From an uncultured Rikenellaceae bacterium (GTDB taxonomy: Bacteria; Bacteroidota; Bacteroidia; Bacteroidales; VadinHA17): 38,114 nucleotides of DNA. The translations under genes and the position numbers were made by a program. The notes under the pieces were generated by a model that was not told the DNA's origin, did not search any database, and saw only the letters and a program-made list of their open reading frames with translations. Positions 1-31,652 of the stretch are shown here, one piece after another; the first letter of the stretch is position 1; each line of letters begins with the position of its first letter. Location of the stretch: NCBI GenBank assembly GCA_964403185.1, contig CAYOFK010000004.1:1-38114 (forward strand), read 5' to 3'.

Positions 1-52
1 ATTCCTGCTTTCGCAGGAATGATATGTAATCTGACTTTTGAGACAGCCCCTT
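1..52. repeat. Right part of a MITE/REP-like intergenic repeat, cut by the window edge; identical copy at 31580-31631
   Basis: By direct comparison, 52 of 52 nt match 31580-31631, and identity breaks at 53/31632. Contains the perfect hairpin ATTCCTGC-TTTC-GCAGGAAT (1-20) and the arm CTTTTGAGACAGCCCC (35-50). Confidence 0.8.
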
Positions 53-141: not shown

Positions 142-3100
142 TTACTTATTACTTCCCTTTGCAAACCCTTTCAGCAAACAGAGGTATGCATCTTCCAGCA
201 ACGGTGTCACATTAACAGCAGACGGATAGGGTTTTTCTTTTGATATGATCCTTACACTGATCTCATCACCATCAAGCATATGTTGCACAACCATTTGTTT
301 GTTTTCGAGTGCATCAAATTCTGCAGCCGGTATTTTGAACTGCCACACAAATTTTTCTGCCAGTTTGGTCATCTCCTGAGGTATTCCGGTATATTTCACT
401 TCCCCCTTATCAAGGACAGCCACCAGGTTACAGGAACTGGAAATGTCTTCGATAATATGTGTTGAGAACAATACGATGCGGTCGCGGCTCAATTCAACCA
501 GCATGTTACGGAACCGTATCCGTTCACGGGGATCCAGTCCGGCAGTAGGCTCATCCACAACAAGAATTCTTGGCAGGTGCAGCAGTATCTGTGCAATCCC
601 AATACGTTGTTTCATACCCCCGGAATAAGATCCGATCTTTTCGTTCCGTCGCTCATATATGTGTACTGATTTCAGGACATGCTCCAGTCTTTTCTTCCGG
701 GTTTCACTGTTTGAAATGCCCTTCAGGATGGCCTGGTAATCTAAAAACTCCCAGGCTGTAAGGTGTTCGTACGTACCAAACTCCTGGGGCAAATAACCGA
801 TCTGCCCCTGCAATTCCTCCCGTTTTTCAAGCGTGTCAATACCATTGATCCATATCTTTCCATAGCTTTGATCCAGGATGCCACAGATGATCCGCATCAT
901 GGTGGATTTGCCGGCGCCATTCGGACCCAGAAGTCCGAACATTCCGGCACCAATATCGAAAGACACCCCGTTGAGGGCTTTAAATGGCTGACGGCGCTTT
1001 CCAATCAGGGGAATTTGCTTAACCAGGCGCAATAAACGCCGGCGCAAGATTCCAAAACGACCCGAAATTCTTTCAATATTCACATGTTCCCTATACAATC
1101 TTTCCGCCGTCCTGTTTACTATCAGGGCCAATAACCACAGCACTCCCACCACGATCACCATACCTATATTCTTCCACATCTGCGAGAAGATATAGAAATT
1201 GATGAGAGGAATGCCCCAGTATAAAATCCCGGACAAGTATTTATCAACATTCTTAATAACTGATTTGCCCTGTTTATGGGTGAACTTTGACAGAACAATT
1301 CCGATGGGTTTGTATAAAAGAAGAATATAGAGATAGGTAATTATAGACCCGATTACGATCCAAAAGTCAGATTGCAGGAAAAAGTAGGTGAAATAGGTCA
1401 GGAATCCAAGCAGTGGCAATTGCCATATAAAATTATTATAATCGCTGATCTTGTTGTACTCCTTTTCCAGGCCGGCCCGTTGCCTGATGGCAATTCCTCC
1501 TTTCCATTCCCTGACCACCCTTGGATCTCTCTCATAGATCTTTACAAGCCTCTGGATCTTAATACGGATGGTTTCATCAGGGGCAATAAGTTTGGTGCTG
1601 GCTCTTCTCAGGCTGGTAAGAAAAAACCAGGCTGATCCAGGGATCAGTATGATCATCAGAACAAACAAGATCATCCTCCATAAAAAGGAATCCACTCCGG
1701 TGACCACCAGGTATCCACCAAGAACAAATGCTGCAATTTGCAGGATAATTACTTTCAGGTCGAGAGATTTGAACCAGGAAATTGCATTTTCCATGCCGAA
1801 AAAGAAAGTCGGGATAAATACCAGTGTAAAGACTGTGCTCAATGACAGGCCTCCGATTACCGTAATGGCAAAGGGCGCTCCGATGATGCTAACATATTCG
1901 GCCTGACCCATGGCAAGGGGGATCATGGCCACAATGGTGGTAATGGCTGTGATCAGAATGGGCCTCACCCGGGATAAACCTGAAACCATCAGGGCACGGG
2001 TCATACGGTAGCCTCTTTTTCGTAAAATGTTGGCATAATCGATAAGCAGGATGCTATTATTAACCACGATTCCAATCAGGATGAGGAACCCGGTGAGTGT
2101 ATTGGCATTCAGCAGGCTGTTGCCCGTCAATATCAGAGCAATAAAGGAACCAACTGCAGCCAGTGGAATTGAAAACATTAAGACAAGAGGTGTGGTAAAC
2201 GACTCAAATACCGAAGCCAGGATCATATATATCAGGATAAAGGCCGCTAAGATGAGGAATTTAAATTCTGCCAGCTCATCTTCTTCATGGATCACCTCCA
2301 CAGCCACACCTGATGGCAGATTATAGGCCGCAACGATATCATCAATTTCAAGACGGTAGGCCTCCAGAAGATCTTTGGAATCCTCTGCTTCGGAAATAAA
2401 TGAGTAGTTTATCTCGATCTGTTTTTCCTGATCGACCCTGTTGATCCTCCTTAAGCCGTCAGCATACACAATATCTGCAATGGTTTGCAGCGCATGGGTG
2501 CCTCCACTCTGATCATAAACAGGCAATGCTCTGAGGTCTTCAATGGTCTTGTCACTTTCCCCCTGGATAGTGTCAGTATTCTCCTTTATGATGATGTCAT
2601 ATTCATCGGTTCCCTGTTTAAAGGTCATGCCGGAAGAAAATTCCCTGGAAAAAGAACCGAGTTCCGTACTGATGGCATTGAGTGTAATCCCGTATTCAGT
2701 CATCAGCACCTGGTCGAAAAAAAGGTGGATTTCCGGTTGATTGTTGGATACATTTACCGAAACCCTCCGGATGGATTCCAACTCATCAATAAAGTACCTG
2801 ATATCCTCAGCCACACCCTCCATTACTCCAAAATCATCTCCTTTTATAACGATCCGTTCACTACTGCTTCCCATTCCCAGCATGCGTTCAAAGCTTTGGG
2901 CTGTTTTACTGCCCGATGATCCCCTGAAACTATTACCCGATGTTGGTTGGGTCAGACTGATCTCAGCGTTGGCAATGGATTCCATTGATCCTTCCACTTC
3001 CGATTTTATATCCTCAAGTTTGCGTTCAGAAGTTTTTTTATAGTCTTCCTTCAATCGAACGGTTACAATGGCCTCTTCTTCCTGGACCTGGGAAATTACA

Positions 3101-4866
3101 TCCTGTTTTTCTTCCAGGTTTTCGAGTTGTTCTTCGATCTTTTGCACAACAAGATCGGTCGTCTCAAGGTTGGAACCGGATGGCATTGTAGCATAAATTT
3201 TAAATTCTTCTGTTTCCACCTCTGACAAGGAGGTGACATTTATGGAAAGGGCAATAAATACGGCGATAAAAAAGAATACCACGGCGCCAATAATGGTCCT
3301 TGCCGGGAATCTCATGCTGGTTTTCAGTACGAGAATATATATTTGAACAATGCGGTTACTTGTGGTTACTTTCTCATAGAAAATATTCTTGTCGCGTCCC
3401 CGTTTAAGGTAGTAATGAGCCGCCATGGGAATAAACAAAAGGGCCACCAATAAGGAGACCAGGAGGGTTGAAACAATGGATACACCCACCTGCAGGCCAT
3501 ACAGTTTCACAAGAAAATTGGAAGTAAATACAAAGGGCAGGAAAATGACTACGGTGGTTAAGGTTGCTGCAAAAATGGCTCGCCAAACCTCTTTCGTCCC
3601 CTTGTTTATGGCCGATTCCGGATCGAATCCGCCGGCAGATAAGCGGTAAATGTTTTCCAGTACAACCACCGAATTGTCCAGCAGCATCCCCACCGCCAAC
3701 GCAATTCCAACAAGGGTCAGGCTGTTGATGGTAACTCCGGTTGCATAAAAGAAGTTAAAGGCGGTAAAAACAGATATGGGAATGGCCAGTGCAACAATAG
3801 AAACGATGCGCAGATTCTTAAGGAACACCCACAAAACGAATATGGCCAGCAGCCCCCCGATCAGCGCCAGGTTAATGATCTGGTTGATATTCCGTTCCAT
3901 GGATTCAGCCACGCTTGACTGCACAACAATTTCAATATCCTGGCTTTTATATTTTTCATTAAGCCTGTCTATCTGGTTCTGTGTTTTCCGTGACAATTCA
4001 ATCAGGTTGGCCCGGGCATCATTAACCAGAAGGACCGTGATGGCATTTTTACCATTAACCCTGCTATATGAAGTTTCTTCTTTGACCCCAAAGAAAACTG
4101 TAGCAATATCCTTTAATAATACGGATCCTGATCCGACTGCAATATTTTCTATTTCGCTGATGTTAGAATATTCAGCACTGACATTAACGAAGTAACGCTT
4201 TCCTGAATCTGTTATGTATCCTGCAAATGATTTTTCCAGGGCATTTCTTCGCAAGGCATTCTGTATTGTAGCGGGTGTAATATCATAGGCCTGGCATGCA
4301 TCCATATTCAGCCTGATCTCAATGGACTTGGTCCGGCCACCATACACATTTGCCGAGGCAATGCCATCAATATTCTCAAATTCAGTTTTAATTTTCTGAT
4401 CAACCAGTGTCCGTACCCTGTCGATATCTCCCCCTCCCCGGACCTGAAGTTCCATAAACTGGTTGCTCAGACTTGCCAAATCCACCTTGGATACAAATAT
4501 CTGGAAATTTTCCGGGATGGTTGATCTGGCAATGTCAACCTTTTCCTGGAGTTTCAGATAGGCATATTTAAAATTCACATTTTGCCGGTAGCTGACAATG
4601 ATCTGGGTGGACCTTGAGCTGATAAAGGATTCTATACTTTCGATTCCTTCAAGAGTACCGATGGCACCTTCCAGCGGAATGACCGCCTGGTTTTCCATAT
4701 AATCCGGATCGACTTCAACAGGTGAAGATATACGGATGAAAAGGATGGGCAGCTCAGCATTTGGATACAACTCTACAGGTAAATTCTTATAGGACACCAC
4801 TCCCAACAGGGACAGGCCTATAAACAACATGCTGATCAGAATTTTTCTATGAATTACCAGCTTCAT
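142..4866 (-). CDS. RND (AcrB-like) efflux permease fused C-terminally to a six-TM segment and a complete ABC-transporter ATP-binding domain (1574 aa)
   Basis: Uninterrupted ORF with ATG at 4866-4864 and stop at 144-142. aa 1-~1035 (nt 1762-4866) have an RND layout: an N-terminal TM, two large periplasmic loops, TM4 motif GMLLDNSVVVLENIYR and TM11 motif SRVRPILITAITTIVAMIPLAMG. aa ~1036-1255 (nt 1102-1761) carry six extra hydrophobic segments. aa ~1256-1574 (nt 145-1101) form an ABC NBD with Walker A GPNGAGKST (901-927), Q-loop GYLPQE, signature YSGGMKQR, Walker B ILVVDEPTAGLD (Glu codon 550-552) and H-loop FSTH. Confidence 0.85.
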   Translation of the reverse strand: MKLVIHRKILISMLFIGLSLLGVVSYKNLPVELYPNAELPILFIRISSPVEVDPDYMENQAVIPLEGAIGTLEGIESIESFISSRSTQIIVSYRQNVNFKYAYLKLQEKVDIARSTIPENFQIFVSKVDLASLSNQFMELQVRGGGDIDRVRTLVDQKIKTEFENIDGIASANVYGGRTKSIEIRLNMDACQAYDITPATIQNALRRNALEKSFAGYITDSGKRYFVNVSAEYSNISEIENIAVGSGSVLLKDIATVFFGVKEETSYSRVNGKNAITVLLVNDARANLIELSRKTQNQIDRLNEKYKSQDIEIVVQSSVAESMERNINQIINLALIGGLLAIFVLWVFLKNLRIVSIVALAIPISVFTAFNFFYATGVTINSLTLVGIALAVGMLLDNSVVVLENIYRLSAGGFDPESAINKGTKEVWRAIFAATLTTVVIFLPFVFTSNFLVKLYGLQVGVSIVSTLLVSLLVALLFIPMAAHYYLKRGRDKNIFYEKVTTSNRIVQIYILVLKTSMRFPARTIIGAVVFFFIAVFIALSINVTSLSEVETEEFKIYATMPSGSNLETTDLVVQKIEEQLENLEEKQDVISQVQEEEAIVTVRLKEDYKKTSERKLEDIKSEVEGSMESIANAEISLTQPTSGNSFRGSSGSKTAQSFERMLGMGSSSERIVIKGDDFGVMEGVAEDIRYFIDELESIRRVSVNVSNNQPEIHLFFDQVLMTEYGITLNAISTELGSFSREFSSGMTFKQGTDEYDIIIKENTDTIQGESDKTIEDLRALPVYDQSGGTHALQTIADIVYADGLRRINRVDQEKQIEINYSFISEAEDSKDLLEAYRLEIDDIVAAYNLPSGVAVEVIHEEDELAEFKFLILAAFILIYMILASVFESFTTPLVLMFSIPLAAVGSFIALILTGNSLLNANTLTGFLILIGIVVNNSILLIDYANILRKRGYRMTRALMVSGLSRVRPILITAITTIVAMIPLAMGQAEYVSIIGAPFAITVIGGLSLSTVFTLVFIPTFFFGMENAISWFKSLDLKVIILQIAAFVLGGYLVVTGVDSFLWRMILFVLMIILIPGSAWFFLTSLRRASTKLIAPDETIRIKIQRLVKIYERDPRVVREWKGGIAIRQRAGLEKEYNKISDYNNFIWQLPLLGFLTYFTYFFLQSDFWIVIGSIITYLYILLLYKPIGIVLSKFTHKQGKSVIKNVDKYLSGILYWGIPLINFYIFSQMWKNIGMVIVVGVLWLLALIVNRTAERLYREHVNIERISGRFGILRRRLLRLVKQIPLIGKRRQPFKALNGVSFDIGAGMFGLLGPNGAGKSTMMRIICGILDQSYGKIWINGIDTLEKREELQGQIGYLPQEFGTYEHLTAWEFLDYQAILKGISNSETRKKRLEHVLKSVHIYERRNEKIGSYSGGMKQRIGIAQILLHLPRILVVDEPTAGLDPRERIRFRNMLVELSRDRIVLFSTHIIEDISSSCNLVAVLDKGEVKYTGIPQEMTKLAEKFVWQFKIPAAEFDALENKQMVVQHMLDGDEISVRIISKEKPYPSAVNVTPLLEDAYLCLLKGFAKGSNK

Positions 4867-4887: not shown

Positions 4888-7800
4888 TTACACTTCTTTT
4901 TTTTCAGAACTGGAAAATACAAACCGCAATCTGTCCAGGACATCATATACGCAGGGGATCACGATCAGGGTCAATAAAGTAGAGGTTACCAGGCCCCCGA
5001 TCACAGCCAGAGCCATAGGGGACCGCAGGGATGCACTTTCACCAAAACCAAAGGTAAGTGGCAGCAAAGCCAGTATAGTAGTGAGACTTGTTATAACGAT
5101 CGGTCTGATCCGCTGTTGGCCGGCCTGTATGATCGCATCCAGGCGTTGCATTCCTTCCTGGCGCAACTGATTGATCCTGTCAACCAGGATGATGGAATCG
5201 TTTACCGCAATTCCGGCGAGCATAATGATGCCGATAATGGCCATAATATTCAGGGGCCTTCCCATGAAAAAGAACAAAAAAATGGTCCCCACAGCAGCCA
5301 GGGAAATGGTTAGCAATATGGTGAACGGATGGATCAGTGATTCGAATTGTGAAGCCAGTACCATATATACCAAAACCAGGGATAAGATCAATGCAAATTT
5401 CAAGTTATTCATCGACTCCTTTCGTTTTTCTTCCTCTCCGGTCACAGTGATACTGTAGTTTTCAGGCAGCACCAGGGAACTAACCCGGGTCTCGATTTGT
5501 TGTGCAATTTTATCCAGGGCAATGCCCGTTTCCATCTGGGCCATTACTTTCCCTATCCTGTTCTGATTGCGTCTGAATATTTCTTTCGGGGATACCGAAG
5601 ATCTGATCCTGGCGACTTCATCGAGTCGTATTACTTCATTACCATTCACGATGATCATATCATTCAGGTCGGAAAGTATTTTTTCAGGAATCCGTAATAC
5701 AATGCGGGTTAATTCGCCGTCCTTTTCCATGTCACCGGCATCTTTGCCTTCCAGTTGATCCTGTATCTGAGTGATTATTGTAGAAACATCTAAATTGTAC
5801 AGGCCGGCCCGCATTCGATCCACAACAATTTCCACTTCGGGAGATCCACCTTCAATAGTGGTTTTTACATTATATATCCCGGACATTCCGGCCAGAATCT
5901 CTTTGACCTGCAATGTCAGGTCCTCGATCACATTCAGGTCTTCTCCCCTGACTTCAACCACCAGGGGTGCTTCTTCGGTCCCCAGGATGCTATTTAAGGC
6001 CGATTCGTTCTGAACAAAGCTGAACTCCACTCCGGGAATACTGTCGGTTAAGCTGCTGATAGCCCTGATGACCTCAAGTGAAGAATAGTTAGATTCCGGA
6101 TTCAGGTTGACCTTGATATTTCCGGTATTCTCGCCTTTAAAGACCGCCTGGATATCTCCCGACAAATTGCTTTCCGCTCCGGCATGACTATAGATAGACA
6201 CCATGTGGTCACCCAGGAGTTCCGTGATTATTTCCTCAAGATTTCTAATGGCCGAAGCCGTTCTGTTCAGGTGGGTTCCTTCGGGCATCTTTACTTCAAT
6301 ATCAAATTCATGGGTGCCGGTTTTGGGCATAAATTCCGTTCCGATCCCGGTGAGCAGGTAGAATGACACCCCCACAAGAGCTGCCGATAAAACTATGACC
6401 AGCCATTTTCTGAGGAGAACCTGACCAAGAAAGTTTCCATAGGCATTAAATGTAACAGACCGTTTAGCTACCGGAGCTGAACGTTTCCCATAGATCAGGT
6501 GGTACAACACAGGGATAAGAAAAATGGCCACGAACAAGGACGACAGAAGTGAAAATGTTACGGTCCATGCCTCATCTTTAAAAAGTTCACCGGATGCTCC
6601 ATGCAGGTAAACAATGGGAAGGAACACCACTATTGTGGTAATGGTGGATGCCGTGATGGCCCCGCCAACCTGGGCTGTTCCCTGTACGATGGCCTCCTTC
6701 ACCGGCATTCCGCTTTCATGGTTTCTGAATATATTCTCAATAACAATAATGGCATTATCCACCAGCATGCCTGCACCCAGGGCCAGTCCCCCAAGGGTCA
6801 TAATATTAATGGTCAGGTGCCCGAAATACATCAGGTTGAATGTAGCGATGATGGACACAGGAATGGCAGTACTTACTATTAAGGTTGTTCCAAAGCGCCT
6901 GAGGAAAAGGAAAAGCACAAATACCGCCAGCACCACCCCCAGTATTGCAGTGTTTTTAACCTCATTAATGGAATTATCAATATAGGTGCCCTGGTCTGAA
7001 ACAACGGTCAGGTCATAGCCCGGCAGGGCTTTTTCAATTTCCACCATCGATTCTTTTATCTGATCAACGGCTTTTACTGTATTAAACCGTGTTTCTTTAA
7101 AAACGGACAGGCCGATACATCTTGCCCCGTTCAGCCGGACGATATTTGCAGGTTCTTTATTTGAAAAACGAATCTCCCCCACCTCTTTCAGAAAAATTGG
7201 GGCATATCCCTGATTTGAAGATGTGGGTTCCCCCACGGAGGCTTCAACGGGTTTATAGCCGACAATTATAGTACCCAGGTCTTCAACTTCTTCAATAATA
7301 CTCACACCTTTAATAATGTACTGCATTCCCATTTCAGTAATGGATCCGCCGGAAATATTCCGGTTAAAGTTTTGTATTTTTTGACTTATTTCATCCAGAG
7401 TCAGGTCAAAAGCATCCAGTTTGTACTGGTTTGTTAAGAACACCACTTCTCCCTCTTCCTGTCCGGACAACTCAACTTCTGCCACACCTTCCAGGCGAAC
7501 CAGTTTATTCCTGATATAGGTCTCAGCCACTTTCCTCAGTTCATTCATATCGGTGATGTCCTGGTGTGTTAATCCGATGAGCATTACCGGCGCTGTGTTG
7601 GGATCATGCTGGGTAATATTGATCTCATCGATTTCAAGGTTTTGGCTCAAGGCATTCAGCTCTTTCTGTAAGTCCAGAAAAGCTTCATCCATATCTTTGT
7701 TCCAGACATATTCAACGGTTATCTGGGCAGAGCCATTCCGGGATATTGAAGAAACCTGGATTACATCGCTTTGGCGTATGGCCAGGGCCTCAATATTTTC

Positions 7801-7995
7801 AACGAATTGTTTTTCCATTTCCTCAGGAGGCCGTTCGCCGGATAGTATTTCAACAAAAATGCGTGGATTATTCAGGTCAGGAAACAGATCAACGCCCAGT
7901 TTTCCATAAGAAATGATTCCCAGGAGGATGATCGCCAGAACAACCATAAAGATTGTTACGGGATAATTGACTGCAAATTGTACAAGTTTCTTCAT
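4888..7995 (-). CDS. Efflux RND transporter permease subunit (AcrB/HAE-like), unfused paralog
   Basis: ~1035 aa with a typical RND N-terminus (MKKLVQFAVNYPVTIFMVVLAI), TM4 GMLVDNAIIVIENIFR, TM10 AGIAVNDSIILVDRINQL and TM11 QRIRPIVITSLTTILALLPLTFG. I prefer the ATG at 7995 over the TTG at 8025 given in the ORF track. It ends 21 nt before the next gene. Confidence 0.9.
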   Translation of the reverse strand: MKKLVQFAVNYPVTIFMVVLAIILLGIISYGKLGVDLFPDLNNPRIFVEILSGERPPEEMEKQFVENIEALAIRQSDVIQVSSISRNGSAQITVEYVWNKDMDEAFLDLQKELNALSQNLEIDEINITQHDPNTAPVMLIGLTHQDITDMNELRKVAETYIRNKLVRLEGVAEVELSGQEEGEVVFLTNQYKLDAFDLTLDEISQKIQNFNRNISGGSITEMGMQYIIKGVSIIEEVEDLGTIIVGYKPVEASVGEPTSSNQGYAPIFLKEVGEIRFSNKEPANIVRLNGARCIGLSVFKETRFNTVKAVDQIKESMVEIEKALPGYDLTVVSDQGTYIDNSINEVKNTAILGVVLAVFVLFLFLRRFGTTLIVSTAIPVSIIATFNLMYFGHLTINIMTLGGLALGAGMLVDNAIIVIENIFRNHESGMPVKEAIVQGTAQVGGAITASTITTIVVFLPIVYLHGASGELFKDEAWTVTFSLLSSLFVAIFLIPVLYHLIYGKRSAPVAKRSVTFNAYGNFLGQVLLRKWLVIVLSAALVGVSFYLLTGIGTEFMPKTGTHEFDIEVKMPEGTHLNRTASAIRNLEEIITELLGDHMVSIYSHAGAESNLSGDIQAVFKGENTGNIKVNLNPESNYSSLEVIRAISSLTDSIPGVEFSFVQNESALNSILGTEEAPLVVEVRGEDLNVIEDLTLQVKEILAGMSGIYNVKTTIEGGSPEVEIVVDRMRAGLYNLDVSTIITQIQDQLEGKDAGDMEKDGELTRIVLRIPEKILSDLNDMIIVNGNEVIRLDEVARIRSSVSPKEIFRRNQNRIGKVMAQMETGIALDKIAQQIETRVSSLVLPENYSITVTGEEEKRKESMNNLKFALILSLVLVYMVLASQFESLIHPFTILLTISLAAVGTIFLFFFMGRPLNIMAIIGIIMLAGIAVNDSIILVDRINQLRQEGMQRLDAIIQAGQQRIRPIVITSLTTILALLPLTFGFGESASLRSPMALAVIGGLVTSTLLTLIVIPCVYDVLDRLRFVFSSSEKKEV

Positions 7996-8029
7996 TGGAT
8001 TACCTGATGATGGTTTCCGGAGCAAGCAA

Positions 8030-9088
8030 CTACTGGATAATTTTTATCTTGGCTCTGTCGCGCAATGTCTCAAATCCTTTGATTACCAGCCTTTGGTTGG
8101 TTTCCAGTCCGCTTATGATCTCTACTTCATATTGATTTTCCAGTCCCGTTGTGATGCGCCGCATTCTGGCTGTGGATTGTTGCACAATAAAAACACGTTT
8201 GCCACGCGCATCCGAGAGTATGTATTCTTTGGGAATGGTAATGATATCCGATTTACGTTGTATTACAATATCTGCTTTCACAAACATACCGGGCCGCAAT
8301 TTCAACTTCGGGTTTTGAACCAGCAGTTTGCATTTAAAAGTCCGTGTCTCAGTACTGATGGCCGGTGAGATCTCACTGATCCTGCCTGAAAGGGTATCTT
8401 CAGGAAAAACATAACTGGTGATGTAAACATTTTGTCCGGTTTTGAGGTCCTGTAAATGTTTTTCAGGAAGGTTGATTTCCATATACATATTGGAATAAGC
8501 CATTAGTTTTACCATGGATTGCCCGGTATTCACTCTGGTTTCAGGAGTATGATAGGGGAGGTCAACGATCGCACCGCCAAAAGGCGCCACAACTTTCATT
8601 TTTTCCAGTCTTATTTGAGCGCTCTCATAATCATATTTTGCATTAATATAAGCGACTTCAGAATTTCTAAACTCTCTGAGTGTCACCCCGCCTTTCTCAT
8701 AAAGTGATTCCTGTTTTCTGAATTCCATTTCTGAGATATCAAAATTGAGTTTCTTAGCCTCAATGGCTATGCCGTTCTCATATTCTTTATCTTCCAGATA
8801 AATGATTACCTGGCCCTGTTTCACCCGGTCTCCCAATTTATAAGGCCGGCCGGTTAAGGGATTAGTGGCGATCCTGTATCTCCCGGTAATTTCAGACATT
8901 AATTCGGTTTCGTGTGTGGCCAGCACTGTTCCCGTGGTATTCACATAGGTTTCAATGTCGCCGGTTTTAATATCCATAACCGATACCGGAATGGCCAGGT
9001 CTGTTTCAATATCATCCGGTTGCCGGTTGCATGATAAAATCCCCAGCAGACCGATACAAGCTAATATAAGGTTCCCTGATTTTTTCAT
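8030..9088 (-). CDS. Efflux periplasmic adaptor (membrane-fusion protein, HlyD/AcrA-like), probable lipoprotein
   Basis: 352 aa. Signal peptide ends in ...GILSC (lipobox-like Cys20). Has the barrel-sandwich / coiled hairpin / beta-barrel pattern typical of MFPs (…GQVIIYLEDKEYE…VVAPFGGAIVDL…). Sits between the TolC-like and RND genes with a 4-nt gap to the upstream gene. Confidence 0.85.
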   Translation of the reverse strand: MKKSGNLILACIGLLGILSCNRQPDDIETDLAIPVSVMDIKTGDIETYVNTTGTVLATHETELMSEITGRYRIATNPLTGRPYKLGDRVKQGQVIIYLEDKEYENGIAIEAKKLNFDISEMEFRKQESLYEKGGVTLREFRNSEVAYINAKYDYESAQIRLEKMKVVAPFGGAIVDLPYHTPETRVNTGQSMVKLMAYSNMYMEINLPEKHLQDLKTGQNVYITSYVFPEDTLSGRISEISPAISTETRTFKCKLLVQNPKLKLRPGMFVKADIVIQRKSDIITIPKEYILSDARGKRVFIVQQSTARMRRITTGLENQYEVEIISGLETNQRLVIKGFETLRDRAKIKIIQ

Positions 9089-9092
9089 GTGT

Positions 9093-10613
9093 TTATTTTA
9101 ATGTTTCAAGAATGGCCTCCGAATCATTGAATAACTCAGAGGGGATTACCGGTTTATTCTTCTCAAAATCGTACAATGATTGAATTTTGAGGTTCAGTAA
9201 TTCGATTTTGTAATTAATTAATGCCTGTGCCAGGCTCATTTTCTTCTCAGACAATTGGGTTTGGAACAGGTTCAGATCCATCCCGGTCAGATCCCCGTTC
9301 TCATAACGTTCAAGGTTGATTTCATAGGTTAACTGGGCATTTTTATCATTTTGCCGGGCGATGTCGATTTGATTGAGCTGGTTCTCCAGATTCCGGTACA
9401 CTTTTCTGATATCAATGATAATCTGTAGTTTTTGCTGGTCGAAGTTAAGCTCCTGGGTTTTGATAACGGCTTCCTGTGCTTTGATCCGGGCCTTTCTTTC
9501 ACCCCAGTCCCACAATGGTACATTAAAAGCTAAAGATACCCGTGGATTTTGAGTGGGATTATCGTAGATATTCCGGAATTGTTCATTTTCACTAAAAACC
9601 CCGACCGAGATCTGGAGATCTCCCCTGAATTCATTTAGCGACCTGGTGCGGATCAACTGAAACTGGGAGGTTTCAATATCGATTTCACGCTGGCGCAGTT
9701 CCATTCTGGAATTCAGACCGTAATCAACTGCTTTTTCGAGATCCACTGCCACAGTATCTGAAGAAATATCCGCAATTATTATAATGTTTTCATACAGGTC
9801 CATCCCCAGGAAAAATTTGAAATCATCCTTAGCATTTTCAAGAGCAACTGAGTTGTTGTACAGATTCGACCGTGCAGTGCTTAAATTCAGCTCTGCCTGG
9901 TATAACTCTTCCCGGGCTGCCAGCCCTGCATCCACTTTATTGCGAATAATATCAAAACTGTTCTGTGTGTTGGTTAATTCTTCCTGGGCAATGACCAGGC
10001 TCATTTGAGCCAGATGCACATTATAGAAAAACTGCGTGACATTTTTTTCAAGGTTCAGCAACTGCAATGCATAACTGATATTGGCATTCTCATAGTCCAG
10101 TTCAATTTCAGTTAGTTCCAGTTTTTGCCTGTTGTAGGTAAACAAGGGTTGCGTCAGGCTCAGGTACAGATCGTTAGAAAAGGTTTTAATGATCTCTTCT
10201 GATCCTGTAAAATCAGATTTATTATACTGCCATCCCAGGGTATTAACCAGGGAAAGAGTCCCGTCTGTCCATAAAACAGGCTGATCCACCCTGAATGTTC
10301 CCGAAGAAGTGAAATTTTCATTCGTGAACCACTGGGAGAACCGGTTATCAAATGTACGCCTGTTACTGTATTCCATCGGATTCACCGATAAAGAAAACTG
10401 AGATTTTAAGGAGGCCCTTTGCGCGTTCAGGGATTCCCGGGCACGCATCAGGTTAAAAAGCGAGCGCTGGATATCGGGACTGTTCCGGCCCGCAAATTCA
10501 ATCGCTGCATCCAGGGTTATTACCGATTGTGACAAAACAGGCAACCATGCCCCTGAGATCAGGATCAATAAGGTTATTAATATTATTAACCGCTTCATGA
10601 TACTATATTTCAT
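9093..10613 (-). CDS. TolC-family outer-membrane efflux protein
   Basis: ~506 aa with signal peptide MKRLIILITLLILISGAWLPVLSQ. Two internally repeated alpha-helical/beta segments rich in L/Q/E heptads, typical of the OEP family. ATG candidates at 10613 and 10598; the ORF-track start at 10622 is TTG. Confidence 0.85.
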   Translation of the reverse strand: MKYSIMKRLIILITLLILISGAWLPVLSQSVITLDAAIEFAGRNSPDIQRSLFNLMRARESLNAQRASLKSQFSLSVNPMEYSNRRTFDNRFSQWFTNENFTSSGTFRVDQPVLWTDGTLSLVNTLGWQYNKSDFTGSEEIIKTFSNDLYLSLTQPLFTYNRQKLELTEIELDYENANISYALQLLNLEKNVTQFFYNVHLAQMSLVIAQEELTNTQNSFDIIRNKVDAGLAAREELYQAELNLSTARSNLYNNSVALENAKDDFKFFLGMDLYENIIIIADISSDTVAVDLEKAVDYGLNSRMELRQREIDIETSQFQLIRTRSLNEFRGDLQISVGVFSENEQFRNIYDNPTQNPRVSLAFNVPLWDWGERKARIKAQEAVIKTQELNFDQQKLQIIIDIRKVYRNLENQLNQIDIARQNDKNAQLTYEINLERYENGDLTGMDLNLFQTQLSEKKMSLAQALINYKIELLNLKIQSLYDFEKNKPVIPSELFNDSEAILETLK

Positions 10614-10628
10614 CTGTTTCAATAATTT

Positions 10629-13600
10629 TCAATGTTCATCTTGTTTGACAAGCTTTACTGCATCTGCTATCACCTGCCGGCCATCACCAAGATTTGTAAG
10701 TTCAATAACTGCCGTATCGGGTGAGAAATAAAAGGAGCCCAGGCTGTTCCATCCGCCCGAAATATCATTCAGGTCAAGGAGCGGAGTTCCCTGTCCATCA
10801 TCATGATTAATTATAAACTGGTACTTGCCGGCATCCCCGGTTCCTCCCCTGTCTCCTTGTTTCATGACAAAGCCTCTACCCCCGGCTTGTTGAGATTCCA
10901 TATAGAAATAGACTTCGTAATACCCGCTTTCAGGAATTGGAACGTTCCAGATTGCTTTCCTGTCCCCGGCACCCTGTCGTGTATAATATGCCGACCGGAC
11001 GTATCTTCCAAAGAATTTTGAATTGGTGGTCAAGGTCCAGTTCACCGGGATTCTCCAGGTTCTGTATCCCTGATATCTTTGTTCTTCTTCCTTATTCTTT
11101 GACAGAAGTTTAGCAAAAAAACCTTCACTTTCAGGTTGCATGAAGGTAAATTCCGGATCTTCATTATCGACAATGATCTCATTCGGCAGGATCAGATCAA
11201 CCGGGTCATCAACAATCACCTCGCCTTCAAACGGAACCTTTTTATTATTGTCTTCAATAGTCCGGAATGTGTTAATCAATTCCAAAGGGATGTTCTTTGA
11301 AGTTAAAGTTTGGATGGTCATGGCCCTGGGCGCCTGGTCAAGCAAGTAACTGATCTCCTTATTCTGGTTTCCTTCAAGAAAGATCAGTTTTTCAATTGTG
11401 TTGTCTTCCCCGGGCCCGCCGAAACCACCCCTGTCACTGCCACGGCCTCCACCACCTATTCTGAAATTGATCTTCACAATACCAGGAACGGGCTCCAGGT
11501 TTGAGACCTTAAACTCCACCATGGTTTTCATCATTTCCTGGGTTCTCACATTTTCAGCCGTTACGGGACTGAAGATGAATCCCGGCAAAGCTTTGGACTG
11601 GAACCAATCGTCAATAAACTTCTGCAGATCAATGTTAAAACGCTGATCAATCTCATTGGCAAAATCACTGAACGGAACCACATTGAATTTATGACCTTCG
11701 AGATAGGCATATAAAAAAGTTTCAAAATCTTCTTTTCCGGCGGTGGCCTTGATACTTGAGAACAGGAACTCTCCTTTTAGCTTGATCACATTATCAATGA
11801 TCTGAACTTTTTCCGGATCACTCAACAGTTCTGAAAAGCTTTTTTCCTGAAGGGCCATATTTGCTTTTTCATCTTCACTGATCCCTGAGAATTGACGCAT
11901 CCATGAAGTCCTCATATCTGCAAAAGTGCTTTTCAGGTAGGATTCTAAAACCCTGTTAAAAATGGGCAAATCTTCCGCTGCGATATAGTTGACGTAATTG
12001 TAGAAGTTCGGGAAAATGTAATAGGGATTGGCACGTTCCTCAGTTTGCATTTGTCCCCTTCTGTAATTAAAACTGCCCCTGCCCTGTTCATTCGCAAATA
12101 AACCCGCAAAATTATTCAGTGCCCTGACCTCATAATCCATTTTAGTCAGACCCGGGCCGCCTCTTTTCGAGCGCCTCTCCATTCTGTCAATAGTGCCGGC
12201 AAAATTTGCTTCCCGCAAACCCGCTCCCATCTCAGGAATTAAAACCATTTCGGGCTGCACTGATTCAAATCCTCCGGACCAAACATGCTGGAAAGATGCA
12301 TATTGAACCGGCACTTCAACAATGGTAAATCTCTTGTATGGATACCGGAGGTTTATCTTTCTTTCATAATCCTGCAATCGTTCTGAAATGATTTCTGACA
12401 GTGTATCTTTCAATTCCGGAAAAACATCCACAAAATAATCATGATCAGGGTGGAATAGTACAATAAATTCCACGCTGTCAGCCATCAGGGATTTCTTTTC
12501 ATAATTTCCCATAAGCAGGGATAGAAAGGGTAAGGAATTCTCCGGAGTGAAACGCACACCCTCCGGCAGTTTCTCCTCCACGCCCTGGGAAACAGGCATC
12601 AAATCATAGGATGAACGCACATCAAGGGTGAAATCTGTAAAATCCTGGTGTAACCATCCGGGATTGCTGTTGCTGTATGTCACTCCACCGGTTGGATACC
12701 AATTGGTCTCCGGGGTCAGCATAAGATAATCAGGCGAAAGGAATGCGTACCTGTTCTGATAGTATTTTGTCAAGTCCTGACGCGATTCAATATCCATATC
12801 CAGATAACACACTGCTTCATTGATGTTGCCTTCATAGCTGATGGAGAAACTTGCAGATTGCCCGGGAGCCAGAGGCTTCTCAGGCTGAATAAACAACAGG
12901 TGGTGATCGCGGAAAAAGTCCACCTGTTGGCCATTATTTGTAATACCCAACACCTCAAGCCCCGGATTCAGGCTTAGCAGTATCTTTTCGCGGGAGGCCT
13001 CCGTTGTATTCTGTATTGTTATATCTGAACGGACTTTTATACTGTTGCCAAGATGCTCCAACCGGAGATGGTTGGATTGGATTGAAACCACAGGGAAATT
13101 TGCATAATCGTTATTTAATTCAATCATTAAGCCGCGCAGGTTCTGGTTCGATTGAAACTTACTTACATGTAAATATCCAAGATAAAATCCCGCAATCACA
13201 AATACAGCAGCAAAAACCGTTGACAAAATACTTGCCGGTTTCGACTGTGGCAGTCTTTTCAGCAGTACAATGGTCCAGAAAATAAATCCAATCCCTGTTA
13301 ATAAGTATATTCCCCTGTGTATTAGAATTTCATTCATGTTACCAAAACCTGCAATTTCAGATTTCATCATGGGAACATTGTAAGCCATATAATCAAACAG
13401 GTAATACACTTTACCCTTTAAATAAAACACCGTAAGTGCAATATATCCCAGTAAAAGGAGAAAAGTGATGCCCTGGTTCCGGATCACACTCATGATCAGG
13501 AATGAAAGGCCAAGTATAAATATCAGGGTGGGAATGCTGATAAAAAGTAAATATTGCAGATATGCCAAACCATCAAATCCGGTACGTTGTGATACCAGGT

Positions 13601-14033
13601 TAAATATGGCTACCATGACCAATACGACCAGATTCAATGTAAGGAAAACAATGAGGTTTCCAAGGGTTTTTCCCAGTACATAATCGACGTTGCTCATCGA
13701 CCGCATATAAATAACTTCAGTGGTATCCAGTTTTTTATCCCTTTTTAAGAAATCAGAGGCCAGGAAGGCTGCGATGATGGCCTGTGCCATGTTCAGGATC
13801 AGCAAACTCATGTATGGGATCCCGGCGGGAATGATTGAAATGTCCCAGTTGCCGGAACCAAATACTTCGGCCTGGGTCACCAGATTATAAAAGAACAATA
13901 CGACCAGGGCTATGATTCCAAAAATTCTGAAAAACCAGCTCCTGGTGAGGGTGATCATTTCGTATTTTGCAACGGTCCAGATGTGAAAACCAAGCATAGT
14001 GTTGTATTTTTCTGTTAAATTATTCCAAGTCAT
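10629..14033 (-). CDS. ABC-2-type permease (7 TM) fused to a large extracytoplasmic M1-aminopeptidase-like region lacking HEXXH and a golvesin/Xly-CBD-like C-terminal domain (1134 aa)
   Basis: The ATG at 14033 overlaps the upstream ATPase gene by 14 nt. aa 1-~295 hold seven hydrophobic segments. An M1-like layout follows (…RYPYKRFTIVEVP…SGGFES… in place of GAMEN; …FETFLYAYLEGHKFNVVPFSDFANEIDQRFNIDLQKFIDDWFQSKALPGF…). No HEXXH occurs anywhere in the protein. The C-terminus (…GYYEVYFYM…GGWNSLGSFYF…VIADAVKLV) resembles the golvesin C-terminal-like domain. Confidence 0.8.
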   Translation of the reverse strand: MTWNNLTEKYNTMLGFHIWTVAKYEMITLTRSWFFRIFGIIALVVLFFYNLVTQAEVFGSGNWDISIIPAGIPYMSLLILNMAQAIIAAFLASDFLKRDKKLDTTEVIYMRSMSNVDYVLGKTLGNLIVFLTLNLVVLVMVAIFNLVSQRTGFDGLAYLQYLLFISIPTLIFILGLSFLIMSVIRNQGITFLLLLGYIALTVFYLKGKVYYLFDYMAYNVPMMKSEIAGFGNMNEILIHRGIYLLTGIGFIFWTIVLLKRLPQSKPASILSTVFAAVFVIAGFYLGYLHVSKFQSNQNLRGLMIELNNDYANFPVVSIQSNHLRLEHLGNSIKVRSDITIQNTTEASREKILLSLNPGLEVLGITNNGQQVDFFRDHHLLFIQPEKPLAPGQSASFSISYEGNINEAVCYLDMDIESRQDLTKYYQNRYAFLSPDYLMLTPETNWYPTGGVTYSNSNPGWLHQDFTDFTLDVRSSYDLMPVSQGVEEKLPEGVRFTPENSLPFLSLLMGNYEKKSLMADSVEFIVLFHPDHDYFVDVFPELKDTLSEIISERLQDYERKINLRYPYKRFTIVEVPVQYASFQHVWSGGFESVQPEMVLIPEMGAGLREANFAGTIDRMERRSKRGGPGLTKMDYEVRALNNFAGLFANEQGRGSFNYRRGQMQTEERANPYYIFPNFYNYVNYIAAEDLPIFNRVLESYLKSTFADMRTSWMRQFSGISEDEKANMALQEKSFSELLSDPEKVQIIDNVIKLKGEFLFSSIKATAGKEDFETFLYAYLEGHKFNVVPFSDFANEIDQRFNIDLQKFIDDWFQSKALPGFIFSPVTAENVRTQEMMKTMVEFKVSNLEPVPGIVKINFRIGGGGRGSDRGGFGGPGEDNTIEKLIFLEGNQNKEISYLLDQAPRAMTIQTLTSKNIPLELINTFRTIEDNNKKVPFEGEVIVDDPVDLILPNEIIVDNEDPEFTFMQPESEGFFAKLLSKNKEEEQRYQGYRTWRIPVNWTLTTNSKFFGRYVRSAYYTRQGAGDRKAIWNVPIPESGYYEVYFYMESQQAGGRGFVMKQGDRGGTGDAGKYQFIINHDDGQGTPLLDLNDISGGWNSLGSFYFSPDTAVIELTNLGDGRQVIADAVKLVKQDEH

Positions 14034-14919
14034 CCACCCACTGGTCTAGTTTACTTTCCATAAAATAGACGTAGGCATGTTCAAGATTTGGTTCGATGTT
14101 CTTACCGTTAAAACCATTGATATTATCTGCCACTACCTGCACTTCCCATCCTCCGGAAATGGGCACGGTTGAAACCACCGGGAATTTTTCACTGATCTGT
14201 TGAAACTCCGTTTCAGTTGCCTGAATAACCCAGGCATGGCCTTTTACCATTTCAATAAGCGCATCGGGTGCACCATTATAGGCCAGAGATCCCTGGTGCA
14301 GGAGTGCCATATTTTTACATGTACTGGAAATATCGCCAACTATATGAGTGGACAGGATGATGATCACATCCCTTTTACTTATGGTCGCCAGTAAATTCCT
14401 GAACCGGATTCGCTCTTCAGGATCCAGTCCGGTGGTCGGTTCATCAACAATGATGATGTCCGGATCGTTTATTAATGCCTGGGCAATTCCAAGGCGCCGC
14501 TTCATACCTCCTGAAAGTTTGTTTGTTTTGCGGTCCCTTGCTTCAAACAATCCAACATTTTCAAGCATGGAAGCCACTGCTTCTTTCCGTTTCGCACTGC
14601 TTTTCATGCCGGCCAACCGGGCTGTATAATCCAAAAATTCATAGGTCTTAAGCTTCGGGAAAAACCTGAAATCCTGGGGCAGATATCCAAGCATGGCCCT
14701 GATCTCCCGCCGGTTTTTCATCAGGTCCAGGTTGTTAACAGTCACCTTGCCGGCCGTCGGCTTAATTAATGTTGACAAAATACGGATCAGGCTGGACTTT
14801 CCGGCACCGTTTGGACCAAGCAGACCAAAAATGCCATTTTCAATTTTGATGCTGACCTGTTTTAAAGCCCGGTTTCCGTTTTTGTAAGTTTTACTGAGAT
14901 TTTCGATGACTATTTCCAC
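14020..14919 (-). CDS. ABC transporter ATP-binding protein (ABC-2/DrrA-like), first gene of the operon
   Basis: 299 aa with a GTG start; an in-frame TAA lies 2 codons upstream and there is no ATG before the conserved first strand IVIENLSKTY. Motifs: Walker A GPNGAGKSS, Q-loop GYLPQD, signature LSGGMKRR, Walker B IIIVDEPTTGLD, H-loop LSTH. Confidence 0.9.
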   Translation of the reverse strand: MEIVIENLSKTYKNGNRALKQVSIKIENGIFGLLGPNGAGKSSLIRILSTLIKPTAGKVTVNNLDLMKNRREIRAMLGYLPQDFRFFPKLKTYEFLDYTARLAGMKSSAKRKEAVASMLENVGLFEARDRKTNKLSGGMKRRLGIAQALINDPDIIIVDEPTTGLDPEERIRFRNLLATISKRDVIIILSTHIVGDISSTCKNMALLHQGSLAYNGAPDALIEMVKGHAWVIQATETEFQQISEKFPVVSTVPISGGWEVQVVADNINGFNGKNIEPNLEHAYVYFMESKLDQWVDDLE

Positions 14920-15925: not shown

Positions 15926-16169
15926 GTCTGCATTAATAAAGCACTAAAGCACTCAGGTACTTCGGCAGCATTCCCCCGACGAGCTATGTTGTCGGGGTTA
16001 ATTCGTCTTTTGAATTTGGCTACCATAGTTAGCCAAATCCAGGTCTCATTAACATTATTCCAATCAATTTTTTGTGTTACTTTGCAGTCTTATGAGTAAC
16101 AGTTGCATATATAAATACAATCCGGCATACGGTGAAAGAAGGGAGCAAGGAAAATCTAAAGCGGAAAAA

Positions 16170-31629: not shown

Positions 31630-31652
31630 TTTGCTTTATTTCAAATACCTGC

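Follow-up and report, generated by a model that had tools for sequence, protein, structure and literature searches.

Gene content of the locus

The window is a stretch of 38,114 nucleotides from an uncultured Rikenellaceae bacterium. A cluster of efflux and ABC-type genes is found at its start, all on the minus strand, so that the first gene of the cluster has the highest coordinates and the gene for an RND permease fused to an ABC nucleotide-binding domain (NBD) lies closest to the window edge. The features are listed below.

1..52, no strand assigned: MITE-like repeat (full length about 128 nt), truncated at the window edge
142..4866, minus: RND–NBD fusion gene, 1574 aa from ATG to stop, stop codon at 142-144
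4888..8025, minus: RND1, plain RND paralogue, 1045 aa from TTG (Pfam ACR_tran, E 5e-210)
8030..9088, minus: periplasmic adaptor (MFP) of the RND type (TIGR01730, 190 bits against a cut-off of 94.9; synteny)
9093..10622, minus: TolC-like outer-membrane factor (OMP; Pfam OEP, E 3.9e-41; synteny)
10629..14033, minus: large ABC-2-type membrane protein (Pfam, TM profile)
14020..14919, minus: free ABC-2-class ATPase, first gene of the cluster, 299 aa (Pfam ABC_tran)
15413..15709, plus: divergent winged-helix regulator ORF (Pfam HTH_34, E 2.5e-32)

The RND1 gene, for which an alternative ATG start exists at 7995, ends 21 nt upstream of the fusion gene and is found directly upstream of the fusion in relatives as well. 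Two paralogous RND genes and one MFP gene in one operon, with conserved synteny, give an MdtBC-like gene layout. The large ABC-2 protein has about 7 TM helices in its first 290 aa, followed by a domain of about 840 aa in which Pfam identifies an M1-peptidase-like region and Golvesin_C. An active M1 peptidase was considered and rejected, since neither HEXXH nor GxMEN is present in the M1-like region of any of 8 homologues of the large protein. The family of this protein is recorded as TC 3.A.1.145 (PMC3924187). The free ATPase carries canonical motifs; its best NCBIfam matches are DrrA and GldA, both below cut-off. The divergent HTH_34 ORF is a candidate local regulator.

The sequence at 1-52 is identical to that at 31580-31631, and the repeat has the terminal inverted repeats GGCTGTCTCAAAAG / CTTTTGAGACAGCC. 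It lies about 90 nt 3' of the fusion stop codon and occupies the position of a small ABC-2 permease gene in relatives. This permease gene is not visible in the window, which extends only 141 nt past the fusion stop and there contains the repeat element. Rfam and tRNA scans of the window returned no match, and scans for promoters and terminators performed no better on it than on shuffled sequence.

The RND part of the fusion protein

The initial annotation described a single ORF of 1574 aa at 142-4866, and such an ATG-to-stop ORF is present in the ORF list and its translation, on the minus strand, which had been omitted. ACR_tran and ABC_tran are both found in this one chain by Pfam, as had been expected (PF00873 and PF00005). 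The features of the RND part are as follows.

1798..4863, minus: complete RND permease domain, aa 2-1023 (Pfam, alignment to MdtB/MdtF, residue conservation)
3670-3684, minus: D397-N398 of TM4 (alignment to MdtB/MdtF)
2053-2067, minus: N936-N937 of TM10 (alignment to MdtB/MdtF)
1954-1971, minus: R968 of TM11 (alignment to MdtB/MdtF)

The ACR_tran match covers aa 2-1023 (E 8.7e-165, 550 bits) and profile positions 3-1018 of 1021. The match is full-length and the hydropathy profile shows 12 TM helices along with both large periplasmic loops, so the permease is a complete member of PF00873. Its best PDB sequence match is MdtB. The NCBIfam cut-off of 1250 bits for NF033617 (RND_permease_2) is not reached by the fusion (444) or by RND1 (575).

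The AcrB-type proton relay consists of D407 and D408 in TM4, K940 in TM10 and R971 in TM11. In the fusion the D408 equivalent is N398 and the K940 equivalent is N936, while D397 and R968 are retained and are invariant across 72 sequences. Unfused RND1 and distant homologues show the same pattern, so the lack of D408 and K940 is a trait of this subfamily and not a degeneration, nor does it mark a loss of proton-motive-force (PMF) coupling in the fusion. A degenerate relay in the fusion had been considered, based on VNN at TM10 against VND in RND1. This idea was dropped because the asymmetry is not conserved: 66 RND1 sequences have VND (31), VNN (26) or VNS (6) at this position, with 3 unmatched, and distant RND1 sequences mostly have VNN. 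Judged by its residues, the RND permease of the fusion looks PMF-competent.

The fused NBD and six additional TM helices

The part of the fusion that follows the RND permease contains the features below.

1597..1758, minus: TM13 and TM14, the first two extra helices, aa about 1037-1090, linking the RND C-terminus to NBD β1
1534..1569, minus: NBD β1 with A-loop Tyr1111, IRIKIQRLVKIY, aa 1100-1111
991..1527, minus: insertion of about 180 aa in the β1-β2 loop (AlphaFold; class B comparison)
about 1090-1449, minus: TM15-18 within this insertion, aa about 1140-1259 (AlphaFold)
367..990, minus: NBD core from β2 (Pfam, NCBIfam, motif coordinates, Foldseek)
901-927, minus: Walker A GPNGAGKST, aa 1314-1322 (motif search)
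781-795, minus: Q-loop YLPQE, aa 1358-1362 (motif search)
604-627, minus: signature YSGGMKQR, aa 1414-1421 (motif search)
532-567, minus: Walker B/D-loop ILVVDEPTAGLD, aa 1434-1445, catalytic E1439
454-468, minus: H-loop STH, H1470 (motif search)
145..366, minus: β-rich C-terminal domain, aa about 1501-1574 (strands at 482-516 of the C-terminal module in AlphaFold)

ABC_tran matches aa 1298-1442 (E 1.6e-29, 103.7 bits against a cut-off of 25). Walker A, the Q-loop, the signature, the Walker B glutamate, the D-loop, the H-loop and the aromatic residue of the A-loop are all present, in agreement with the motifs quoted in the initial annotation, and they are invariant or nearly so in an alignment of 75 sequences. 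By its motifs and fold the fused NBD is thus predicted to be catalytically intact and competent. DrrA and GldA are its closest NCBIfam families, with 177.7 bits for DrrA (TIGR01188, cut-off 312.45) and 176.6 bits for GldA (TIGR03522, cut-off 402.6); they are the nearest class, yet the fusion is a member of neither. The best Foldseek matches of the NBD are the ABC-2-type ATPase 4yer, NosF and LptB. The matches to 4yer and NosF span 283-302 columns, compared with roughly 210 for NBD-core matches such as LptB; the greater length is further evidence for the β-rich C-terminal domain.

Both hydropathy and the AlphaFold model support the six further hydrophobic segments that had been proposed after the RND part. 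TM13 and TM14 correspond to AlphaFold helices 12-32 and 36-65 of the C-terminal module. The NBD itself is split, which the initial annotation had not noted: its β1 strand follows these two helices and is separated from β2 by the other four, as seen in the AlphaFold model and in the alignment with the class B fusions. Two architectural classes can be distinguished in the family. Class A, to which the fusion of the window belongs, has six extra TM helices, four of them between β1 and β2, while class B has none. In class B some 100 residues separate TM12 from the NBD, and the β1-β2 loop holds only about 28 aa where class A has its insertion. The displaced β1 of the fusion matches the contiguous β1 of class B fusions and of free ATPases, and the strand is predicted only when the NBD is included in the modelled module. 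It is structurally unusual for the β1-β2 loop of an NBD to hold four TM helices. The possibility that the extra helices form an ABC-2 TMD, which would make the C-terminal module a half-transporter, was rejected: Foldseek finds no PDB fold match for these helices with an E value of 0.001 or better, and the hhalign probability against the small and large ABC-2 TMDs of the cluster is 0.2-1%.

Conservation of the fusion

In 71 of 80 genome loci, among them those of cultured Prolixibacteraceae (isolates of Mariniphaga, Draconibacterium, Maribellus, Prolixibacter and Tangfeifania), the frame runs without interruption for 1507-1613 codons. Among 80 metagenome loci, 56 are full length and 22 are open up to the contig edge. 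Nearly all loci without a full frame in these two sets end at a contig boundary. The linker between the RND part and the NBD is conserved and contains invariant residues.

A missed stop, a frameshift or a chimeric assembly that merges two adjacent genes could in principle produce such an ORF, and a few database entries are indeed in pieces (P0029/L001, P0228/L092, L102 and L163). However, L001 lies on a long-read MAG contig and the other three on contigs of 2-4x coverage, while the same unbroken frame occurs in 71 genome loci, independent isolate genomes among them, and in 56 metagenome loci, and the linker is conserved. Since 1574 open codons cannot arise by chance and the frame recurs in this way, an artefact has a vanishingly small probability. 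The initial annotation had named a hidden stop or frameshift at the RND–ABC junction as a concern; the comparative evidence makes read mapping across the junction unnecessary. The fusion is a genuine conserved membrane protein.

Three entries were examined as natural unfused variants and rejected. P0228 (539 aa) results from a split, with overlapping ORFs, on a contig of 2x coverage. The closest relatives of P0440 (483 aa) read through upstream, which marks it as a fragment, and P0029 is frameshifted on its long-read contig. No credible unfused variant was found among about 160 loci, which suggests that the covalent link itself is under selection.

At 50% identity the fusions form at least 25 class A and at least 6 class B clusters, down to 33% identity. 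Named fragments of the fusion come from Bacteroidota, Acidobacteria and Latescibacterota, and the fusion is also found on contigs from human-gut metagenomes. The GC content of the loci ranges from 35 to 76%. A homology search with the 170-aa class B linker returned generic NBDs only. A further candidate for an unfused variant, a protein of 390 aa from Deferribacteres (P0494), has two TM helices and an NBD without β1.

Conserved synteny and ABC-2 partners

Genes for ABC-2-type membrane subunits, with which NBDs of this class usually work, stand beside the fusion in nearly every lineage sampled. In all 72 Prolixibacteraceae loci a small ABC-2 permease gene begins 5-30 nt past the fusion stop, and it is located 3' of the fusion in 77 of 80 metagenome loci. 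A small permease is likewise beside the fusion in the distant loci L083, L086, L087, L088, L089 and L092. The small permeases have 6 TM helices and an E..GTLE motif, and their genes are next to an NBD-encoding gene. The TMD of the large ABC-2 protein is homologous to the small permease (hhalign probability 91%), and the large gene is upstream of the OMP gene in 65 loci.

The gene order is ATPase-large-(OMP)-MFP-RND1-fusion-small in class A and MFP-ATPase-small-RND1-large-fusion-OMP in class B. Thus the order is shuffled while the parts list is constant: the plain RND and its fused paralogue, an MFP, an OMP, a free NBD in addition to the RND-fused one, and two homologous ABC-2 membrane proteins, of which the large one bears a catalytically dead M1-like domain. 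The full list has been co-inherited at least from Bacteroidota into genomes of much higher GC content. The swap of NBD/TMD adjacency between the two classes argues for one assembly. In L083, the fusion is accompanied by the small permease only, whereas a free ATPase, a large permease, RND1 and MFP are all missing from the vicinity. No one heteromeric complex can thus apply to every member of the family.

A possible ATP-driven exporter tethered to an RND pump

Because the fusion is conserved in several phyla and nearly always stands beside genes for ABC-2 membrane subunits, we infer that the fused NBD powers the ABC-2 permease or permeases of the cluster and thereby tethers an ATP-driven inner-membrane exporter to a PMF-driven RND/MFP/OMP pump. 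We assign this reading a probability of about 0.5. The proton motor of the RND part would be kept and most likely not replaced by the fused NBD, which would instead act as an ATPase subunit in an ABC-2 transporter whose membrane part consists of the ABC-2 proteins of the cluster. In the simplest arrangement, the free ATPase and the fused NBD would sit on the pair of small and large permeases. An ATP-driven inner-membrane exporter or extractor would then be hard-wired to the RND/MFP/OMP pump, and this pump would take the substrate from the periplasm or the outer leaflet and expel it across the outer membrane. The stoichiometry in this model is speculative, given that RND pumps are trimeric while NBDs function in pairs. 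A heterotrimer of two RND1 protomers and a single fusion protomer would carry just one tethered NBD; MdtB2C is a precedent for such a mixed RND trimer (PMC4462101). A precedent also exists for inner-membrane pumps that feed trans-envelope pumps (PMC4338810). Whereas the architecture, the intact motifs, the conservation and the synteny are direct observations, complex formation, its stoichiometry and the two-step relay are proposed. The initial annotation had listed an RND transporter physically tethered to an ABC exporter as its last alternative, and with ABC-2 genes adjoining the fusion this alternative fits the evidence best.

The same genes could instead encode two independent pumps without substrate hand-over, one made of a fused-NBD homodimer with the small permease and the other of the free ATPase with the large permease, in which case the fusion to RND would serve co-expression or co-localisation only. 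Class A shows the classic order of NBD then permease twice (ATPase-large and fusion-small), L083 has the minimal two-gene unit of fusion and small permease, and both NBDs have the fully canonical motifs expected of homodimers. However, class B swaps the adjacency to ATPase-small and large-fusion, the whole parts list is co-inherited over the 35-76% GC range, and about 160 loci contain no credible unfused variant. For a fused-NBD homodimer, two neighbouring protomers of the RND trimer would also have to be fusions. We consider two separate pumps unlikely, at somewhat better than one chance in five.

Doubtful to a still greater degree is the lead idea of the initial annotation, in which ATP drives, gates or assembles the RND transporter. 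Here the fused NBDs would pair with each other across fusion protomers, or with the free ATPase, and by binding and hydrolysing ATP would directly power, gate or license the RND permease, either in its conformational cycle or in its assembly, with the ABC-2 proteins being accessory or separate. The covalent link has been conserved for long and in two architectural classes, and in class B no TM helix separates the NBD from TM12. Every ATPase motif is conserved, D408 and K940 of the AcrB type are lacking in this RND subfamily, and the L083 fusion has no RND1 or MFP beside it. But the pattern of the TM4 Asp and the TM11 Arg is identical in unfused RND1, and the gene for a cognate ABC-2 permease is adjacent in nearly every sampled lineage. 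NBDs transmit force via the coupling helices of ABC TMDs, and the RND part shows no evident element of this type. Nor does an RND trimer, with its three-fold symmetry, match an NBD dimer, which is two-fold. To our knowledge, ATP binding or hydrolysis that drives or licenses a PMF-dependent RND cycle is known for no RND transporter. With the relay kept as in RND1 and ABC-2 subunits encoded alongside, the idea is not favoured, although covalent tethering would also be compatible with direct regulation of the RND permease.

RND and ABC exporters are the two main efflux engines of diderm bacteria, and in textbooks they are separate machines with separate energy sources. The family described here, which is conserved in multiple phyla, joins parts of both covalently. 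Our literature search found no paper on the fusion of an RND permease with an ABC NBD or on its characterisation, in line with the initial annotation, which knew of no characterised protein that joins the two. Under the usual annotation, "efflux RND transporter permease subunit", the ATPase goes unnoticed. If the tethered exporter is real, it would represent a hard-wired two-stage efflux with an inner-membrane pump feeding a trans-envelope pump, an idea so far based on the cooperation of separate pumps (PMC4338810), and would make the passing of substrate from pump to pump accessible to study in a tractable system. If ATP instead drives or gates the RND part, this would be the first ATP-coupled RND transporter.

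Comparison with known systems

Among the known systems nearest to the cluster is MdtABC-TolC of E. coli, which also has tandem genes for diverged RND paralogues, a single MFP gene and an outer-membrane factor. In contrast to the fusion, MdtB and MdtC have neither an NBD nor extra TM helices, and the mdt operon contains no ABC-2 genes. The relay is DD/K in the Mdt proteins and D-N/N here. A 2:1 heterotrimer like MdtB2C is a candidate stoichiometry for the present cluster.

MacAB-TolC and DevBCA-type exporters likewise combine ATP hydrolysis with an MFP and a TolC-like channel for export across the envelope. MacB, however, is an FtsX-type permease with four TM helices, a periplasmic domain of its own and an N-terminal NBD, and it has no RND component. 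Pfam and NCBIfam find no FtsX or MacB_PCD domain in the fusion or elsewhere in the cluster, and the MFP of the cluster is of the RND type (TIGR01730). Neither the fusion nor the cluster is thus a MacB-type tripartite exporter.

ABC-2 (type V-like) exporters such as DrrAB, NosDFY, YbhFSR and GldAFG are the closest systems for the NBD, both by family (DrrA, GldA) and by structure (4yer, NosF). They have separate ATPase and permease subunits with about 6 TM helices per permease, and none has an ATPase that is fused to an RND protein or split by TM helices in the β1-β2 loop. YbhFSR is a precedent for two different ABC-2 permeases in one system.

The large protein of the cluster is laid out like TC 3.A.1.145 (e.g. 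M. xanthus Q1D520), with an ABC-2 TMD at its N-terminus and an M1-like domain at its C-terminus. It differs in having about 7 TM helices instead of 13 and an M1-like domain devoid of HEXXH and GxMEN. The TC 3.A.1.145 entry covers the permease only, and the paper on it mentions no link to an RND–NBD fusion (PMC3924187). The cluster provides the first functional context for this uncharacterised ABC-2/M1-like family.

Structure of the fusion protein

The fusion is encoded by a single open reading frame of 1574 codons, which runs from ATG to stop at 142..4866 on the minus strand according to the ORF list and the translation. The initial annotation had coordinates and length right but left the strand unstated. 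Its claim of one chain joining an RND permease to an ABC domain is borne out by Pfam, which recognises a full-length AcrB-type permease (ACR_tran, residues 2-1023; E 8.7e-165, profile 3-1018 of 1021) together with ABC_tran at 1298-1442 (E 1.6e-29) in the same uninterrupted chain; the protein passes the Pfam tests for both domains. All motifs quoted earlier for the nucleotide-binding domain (NBD) were located in the translation, and their residues are invariant or near-invariant in an alignment of 75 relatives.

Motifs of the fusion NBD
aa 1314-1322: Walker A, GPNGAGKST
aa 1358-1362: Q-loop, YLPQE
aa 1414-1421: signature, YSGGMKQR
aa 1434-1445: Walker B and D-loop, ILVVDEPTAGLD, catalytic E1439
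H1470: H-loop, STH

The stretch between the RND part and Walker A is more than a simple linker. RND TM12 is followed by two extra TM helices, the segment IRIKIQRLVKIY (aa 1100-1111), a stretch of about 180 residues that holds four further TM helices, and finally FKALNGVSFDIGAGMFGLLGPNGAGKST. The IRIKIQRLVKIY segment has the form of NBD strand beta1 and ends in the A-loop aromatic residue. In free ATPases, including the operon's own, a beta1-type strand stands immediately before beta2. An AlphaFold model of aa 1026-1574 (mean pLDDT 82.7) shows the segment as a 12-residue strand, while in a model of the linker only (pLDDT 84.3) it turns into coil and its confidence drops to about 60. Since the strand forms with the NBD and is lost without it, beta1 belongs to the NBD fold. 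In fusions of this kind (class A) the four TM helices are predicted to sit inside the beta1-beta2 hairpin of the NBD, a split that the AlphaFold models support. The fusion NBD superposes on the ordinary ABC-2-class ATPases 4yer, NosF and LptB. The six extra helices have no structural relative in the PDB and no profile similarity to ABC-2 membrane domains (TMDs; hhalign probability 1% or less).

A second group, class B, comprises fusions of 1389-1451 aa with ACR_tran, ABC_tran and a linker of about 100 residues in which no TM segment is found. Their beta1 is contiguous and followed by just about 28 residues (PVFKLKKLGYFIPS..GARPEG) where class A has its insertion; the ends of this short loop resemble those of the class A insertion. 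The fused NBDs of both classes cluster together in a rough neighbour-joining tree, which carries no support values, and separately from the free ATPases encoded at those loci. This is consistent with a single ancient fusion, after which the TM insertion was either gained or lost.

Three class B proteins (P0179, P0181 and P0201) share a short interfacial motif, WRW(I/V)LLFWNP, after TM12 and a basic loop, KIYPVFKxKKL..IPS..Y..G.RP.EG, in the beta1-beta2 hairpin, which may be membrane- or partner-contacting elements. A 390-aa protein named from a Deferribacteres MAG and present on 33 contigs (P0494) has two TM helices and then an NBD, with a class A-type segment before beta2 (..IPIIRPPQPEVVAL..) and without the beta1 strand. 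It may represent a relative of the C-terminal module (aa 1026-1574) that is naturally split or truncated.

Occurrence of the fusion

A scan of one genome per species gave 80 loci that encode this module at 56-62% identity, all from Prolixibacteraceae and allies, including the isolates Mariniphaga sediminis, Maribellus luteus, Draconibacterium orientale, D. mangrovi, D. sediminis, Prolixibacter bellariivorans and Tangfeifania diversioriginum. The stop-to-stop frame measures 1507-1613 codons in 71 of these loci; eight are cut by contig ends and one, on a long-read MAG contig, is frameshifted. A metagenome scan added 80 loci, 56 of full length and 22 open to the contig edge; the other two are interrupted and lie on contigs with 2-4x coverage. 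When 1.84 billion cluster representatives were searched exhaustively without a profile, the fusion architecture turned up in at least 25 further clusters (50% identity level), with identities over the module as low as 33%. Named fragments that contain both domains are assigned to Prolixibacteraceae, Bacteroidales, Odoribacter, Acidobacteria and Candidatus Latescibacterota. An assembly artefact is refuted for practical purposes. The fusion is real, strongly conserved, present in several phyla and uncharacterised.

Several contigs of the metagenome loci derive from human-gut assemblies. Contigs so labelled carry the homologues of L163, L165, L167 and nearby loci (52-54% identity), which places the system in gut Bacteroidales-like organisms, beyond sediment and marine Prolixibacteraceae.

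The gene cluster and its relatives

In the window, the fusion gene is one of six closely packed genes, all on the minus strand. Housekeeping chromosomal genes surround them, and the cluster is thus chromosomal and on no obvious mobile element.

Cluster genes and surrounding genes in the window
142-4866 (-): fusion
4888-8025 (-): RND1, plain RND paralogue
8030-9088 (-): RND-type periplasmic adaptor (MFP)
9093-10622 (-): TolC-like outer-membrane factor (OMP)
10629-14033 (-): large ABC-2-type membrane protein with M1-peptidase-like and Golvesin_C domains
14020-14919 (-): free ABC-2-class ATPase
16074-17831 (+): GlnRS-like
23817-25340 (-): GluRS-like
28254-30875 (-): class II-type ribonucleotide reductase
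35082-36317 (-): Kdo transferase

Neither the HEXXH nor the GxMEN motif of active M1 peptidases occurs in any of eight large proteins examined, whose M1-like region probably serves for binding or as a scaffold, not as a peptidase. The Golvesin_C domain is C-terminal. Divergent from the first gene of the cluster, a 98-aa winged-helix ORF (15413-15709, plus strand; HTH_34, E 2.5e-32) lies in a 1.15-kb low-GC gap and is a candidate local regulator.

The order OMP-MFP-RND1-fusion is kept in every complete Prolixibacteraceae locus, and the large ABC-2 gene precedes the OMP gene in 65 of 65 loci with enough flank. These relatives have a seventh gene, starting 5-30 nt past the fusion stop in all 72 loci whose downstream flank is long enough. 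Its product is a polytopic protein of about 240 aa that carries an ABC-2 E..GTLE motif, and an HMM built from these proteins matches ABC2_membrane proteins after distant fusions (E 1e-24 and 4e-9). This small permease gene also follows the fusion in 77 of the 80 metagenome loci. Its product is homologous to the TMD at the N-terminus of the large protein (hhalign probability 91%, E 9e-7). The window stops 141 nt past the fusion stop codon, inside a MITE-like repeat, and no small permease gene is visible in this short stretch.

Divergent class A loci (L086, L087, L088 and L089), on contigs of 47% to 76% GC, have the order ATPase-large-MFP-RND1-fusion-small, and L083 has the fusion and small permease alone. 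Class B loci L085 and L090 read MFP-ATPase-small-RND1-large-fusion-OMP, with partial clusters of this type in L082 and L091. The order is shuffled while the parts stay constant, with two RNDs, two NBDs, two homologous ABC-2 TMD proteins, a single MFP and a single OMP. The gene of the fused NBD lies by the small permease in class A, and the free ATPase by the large protein; in class B this adjacency is swapped.

The repeat, an intergenic MITE/REP-like element of about 128 nt, lies at 1-52 and 31500-31631, and 22344-22357 may be a third terminus. The element is bounded by terminal inverted repeats (GGCTGTCTCAAAAG / CTTTTGAGACAGCC) and contains two perfect hairpins between them. The full copy is 3' of a TonB-dependent receptor gene, and the edge-cut copy (1-52) lies about 90 nt 3' of the fusion stop, the site of the small permease gene in relatives. 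In seven of the metagenome loci L093-L172, the small permease gene is followed by another MFP-like and another fusion/RND-like match (MFP>RND1>FUS>SMALL>MFP>FUS); these loci may hold a tandem second efflux cluster. Some distant clusters have natural-product-like or protease neighbours, inconsistent across loci: CmlA_N/Lactamase_B and TauD flank L086, and a thioesterase and two M4 peptidases flank L088.

Proton relay and proposed mechanism

The AcrB-type DD/K relay is absent from the fusion. TM4 has D397-N398 versus D-D in AcrB and MdtB, the position of AcrB K940 is N936, and the TM11 Arg is retained as R968. The TM4 Asp and TM11 Arg are invariant across 72 fusion sequences; as judged by sequence, this pattern is a trait of the RND subfamily, seen in the fused and the unfused paralogues alike, with no sign that the fused RND has abandoned proton coupling. 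A degenerate relay in the fusion, proposed from the VND in TM10 of the window operon's RND1, was dropped, since RND1 orthologues vary (VND 31, VNN 26, VNS 6); distant RND1s are mostly VNN.

From architecture and synteny we favour, with a probability of about 0.5, an ABC-2 exporter tethered to an RND/MFP/OMP pump for two-stage efflux. The free ATPase and the fused NBD would act on the small and large TMD pair as a single ABC-2 transporter, the simplest reading of the constant parts list and the swapped NBD/TMD adjacency. A covalent link would anchor this transporter to a hetero-oligomer of RND1 and the fusion, which in turn would work with MFP and OMP. An (RND1)2(fusion)1 trimer, for which the MdtB2C heterotrimer is a precedent (PMC4462101), would give exactly one tethered NBD. 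The inner-membrane transporter would hand substrate to the periplasm or outer leaflet, from where the RND pump would expel it. Two-stage efflux is known from separate cooperating pumps (PMC4338810), which the fusion would hard-wire.

Two independent homodimeric ABC-2 pumps, fused for co-localisation only, would fit the gene order of class A as well as L083, where fusion and small permease form a minimal pair. We consider this unlikely, as the adjacency is swapped in class B and no credible unfused variant occurs among about 160 loci. Less probable again is that ATP directly drives or gates the RND part, the lead idea of the initial annotation. Points in its favour are the geometry of class B and a link that is both covalent and permanent; it is disfavoured by the intact subfamily proton relay, the ever-present ABC-2 partners, the mismatch of three-fold and two-fold symmetry and the lack of an evident coupling element in the RND part. 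If true, it would give the first ATP-coupled RND transporter. The favoured tethered exporter would be a built-in two-stage efflux machine.

Comparison with known systems

Full-text literature searches turned up no relevant account of an RND-ABC fusion, and none is mentioned in the main review of tripartite pumps. Automatic database names are "efflux RND transporter permease subunit" and "AcrB / ABC-type multidrug transport system ATPase subunit". We class the fusion cluster as a hybrid in which an RND tripartite pump and an ABC-2 exporter are covalently joined. The closest systems are the ABC-2 exporters such as DrrAB, NosDFY, YbhFSR and GldAFG, together with MacAB-TolC, MdtABC-TolC and TCDB family 3.A.1.145. 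The fusion scores under the curated NCBIfam cut-offs for DrrA and GldA, as for RND_permease_2. MacAB-TolC is an ATP-driven system for tripartite export; none of its FtsX/MacB features is found in the fusion. The family of the large protein corresponds to the uncharacterised TCDB 3.A.1.145, in which an ABC-2 domain is likewise joined to an M1-like one (PMC3924187). MdtABC-TolC, like the cluster, combines tandem RND paralogues with one MFP and an OMP.
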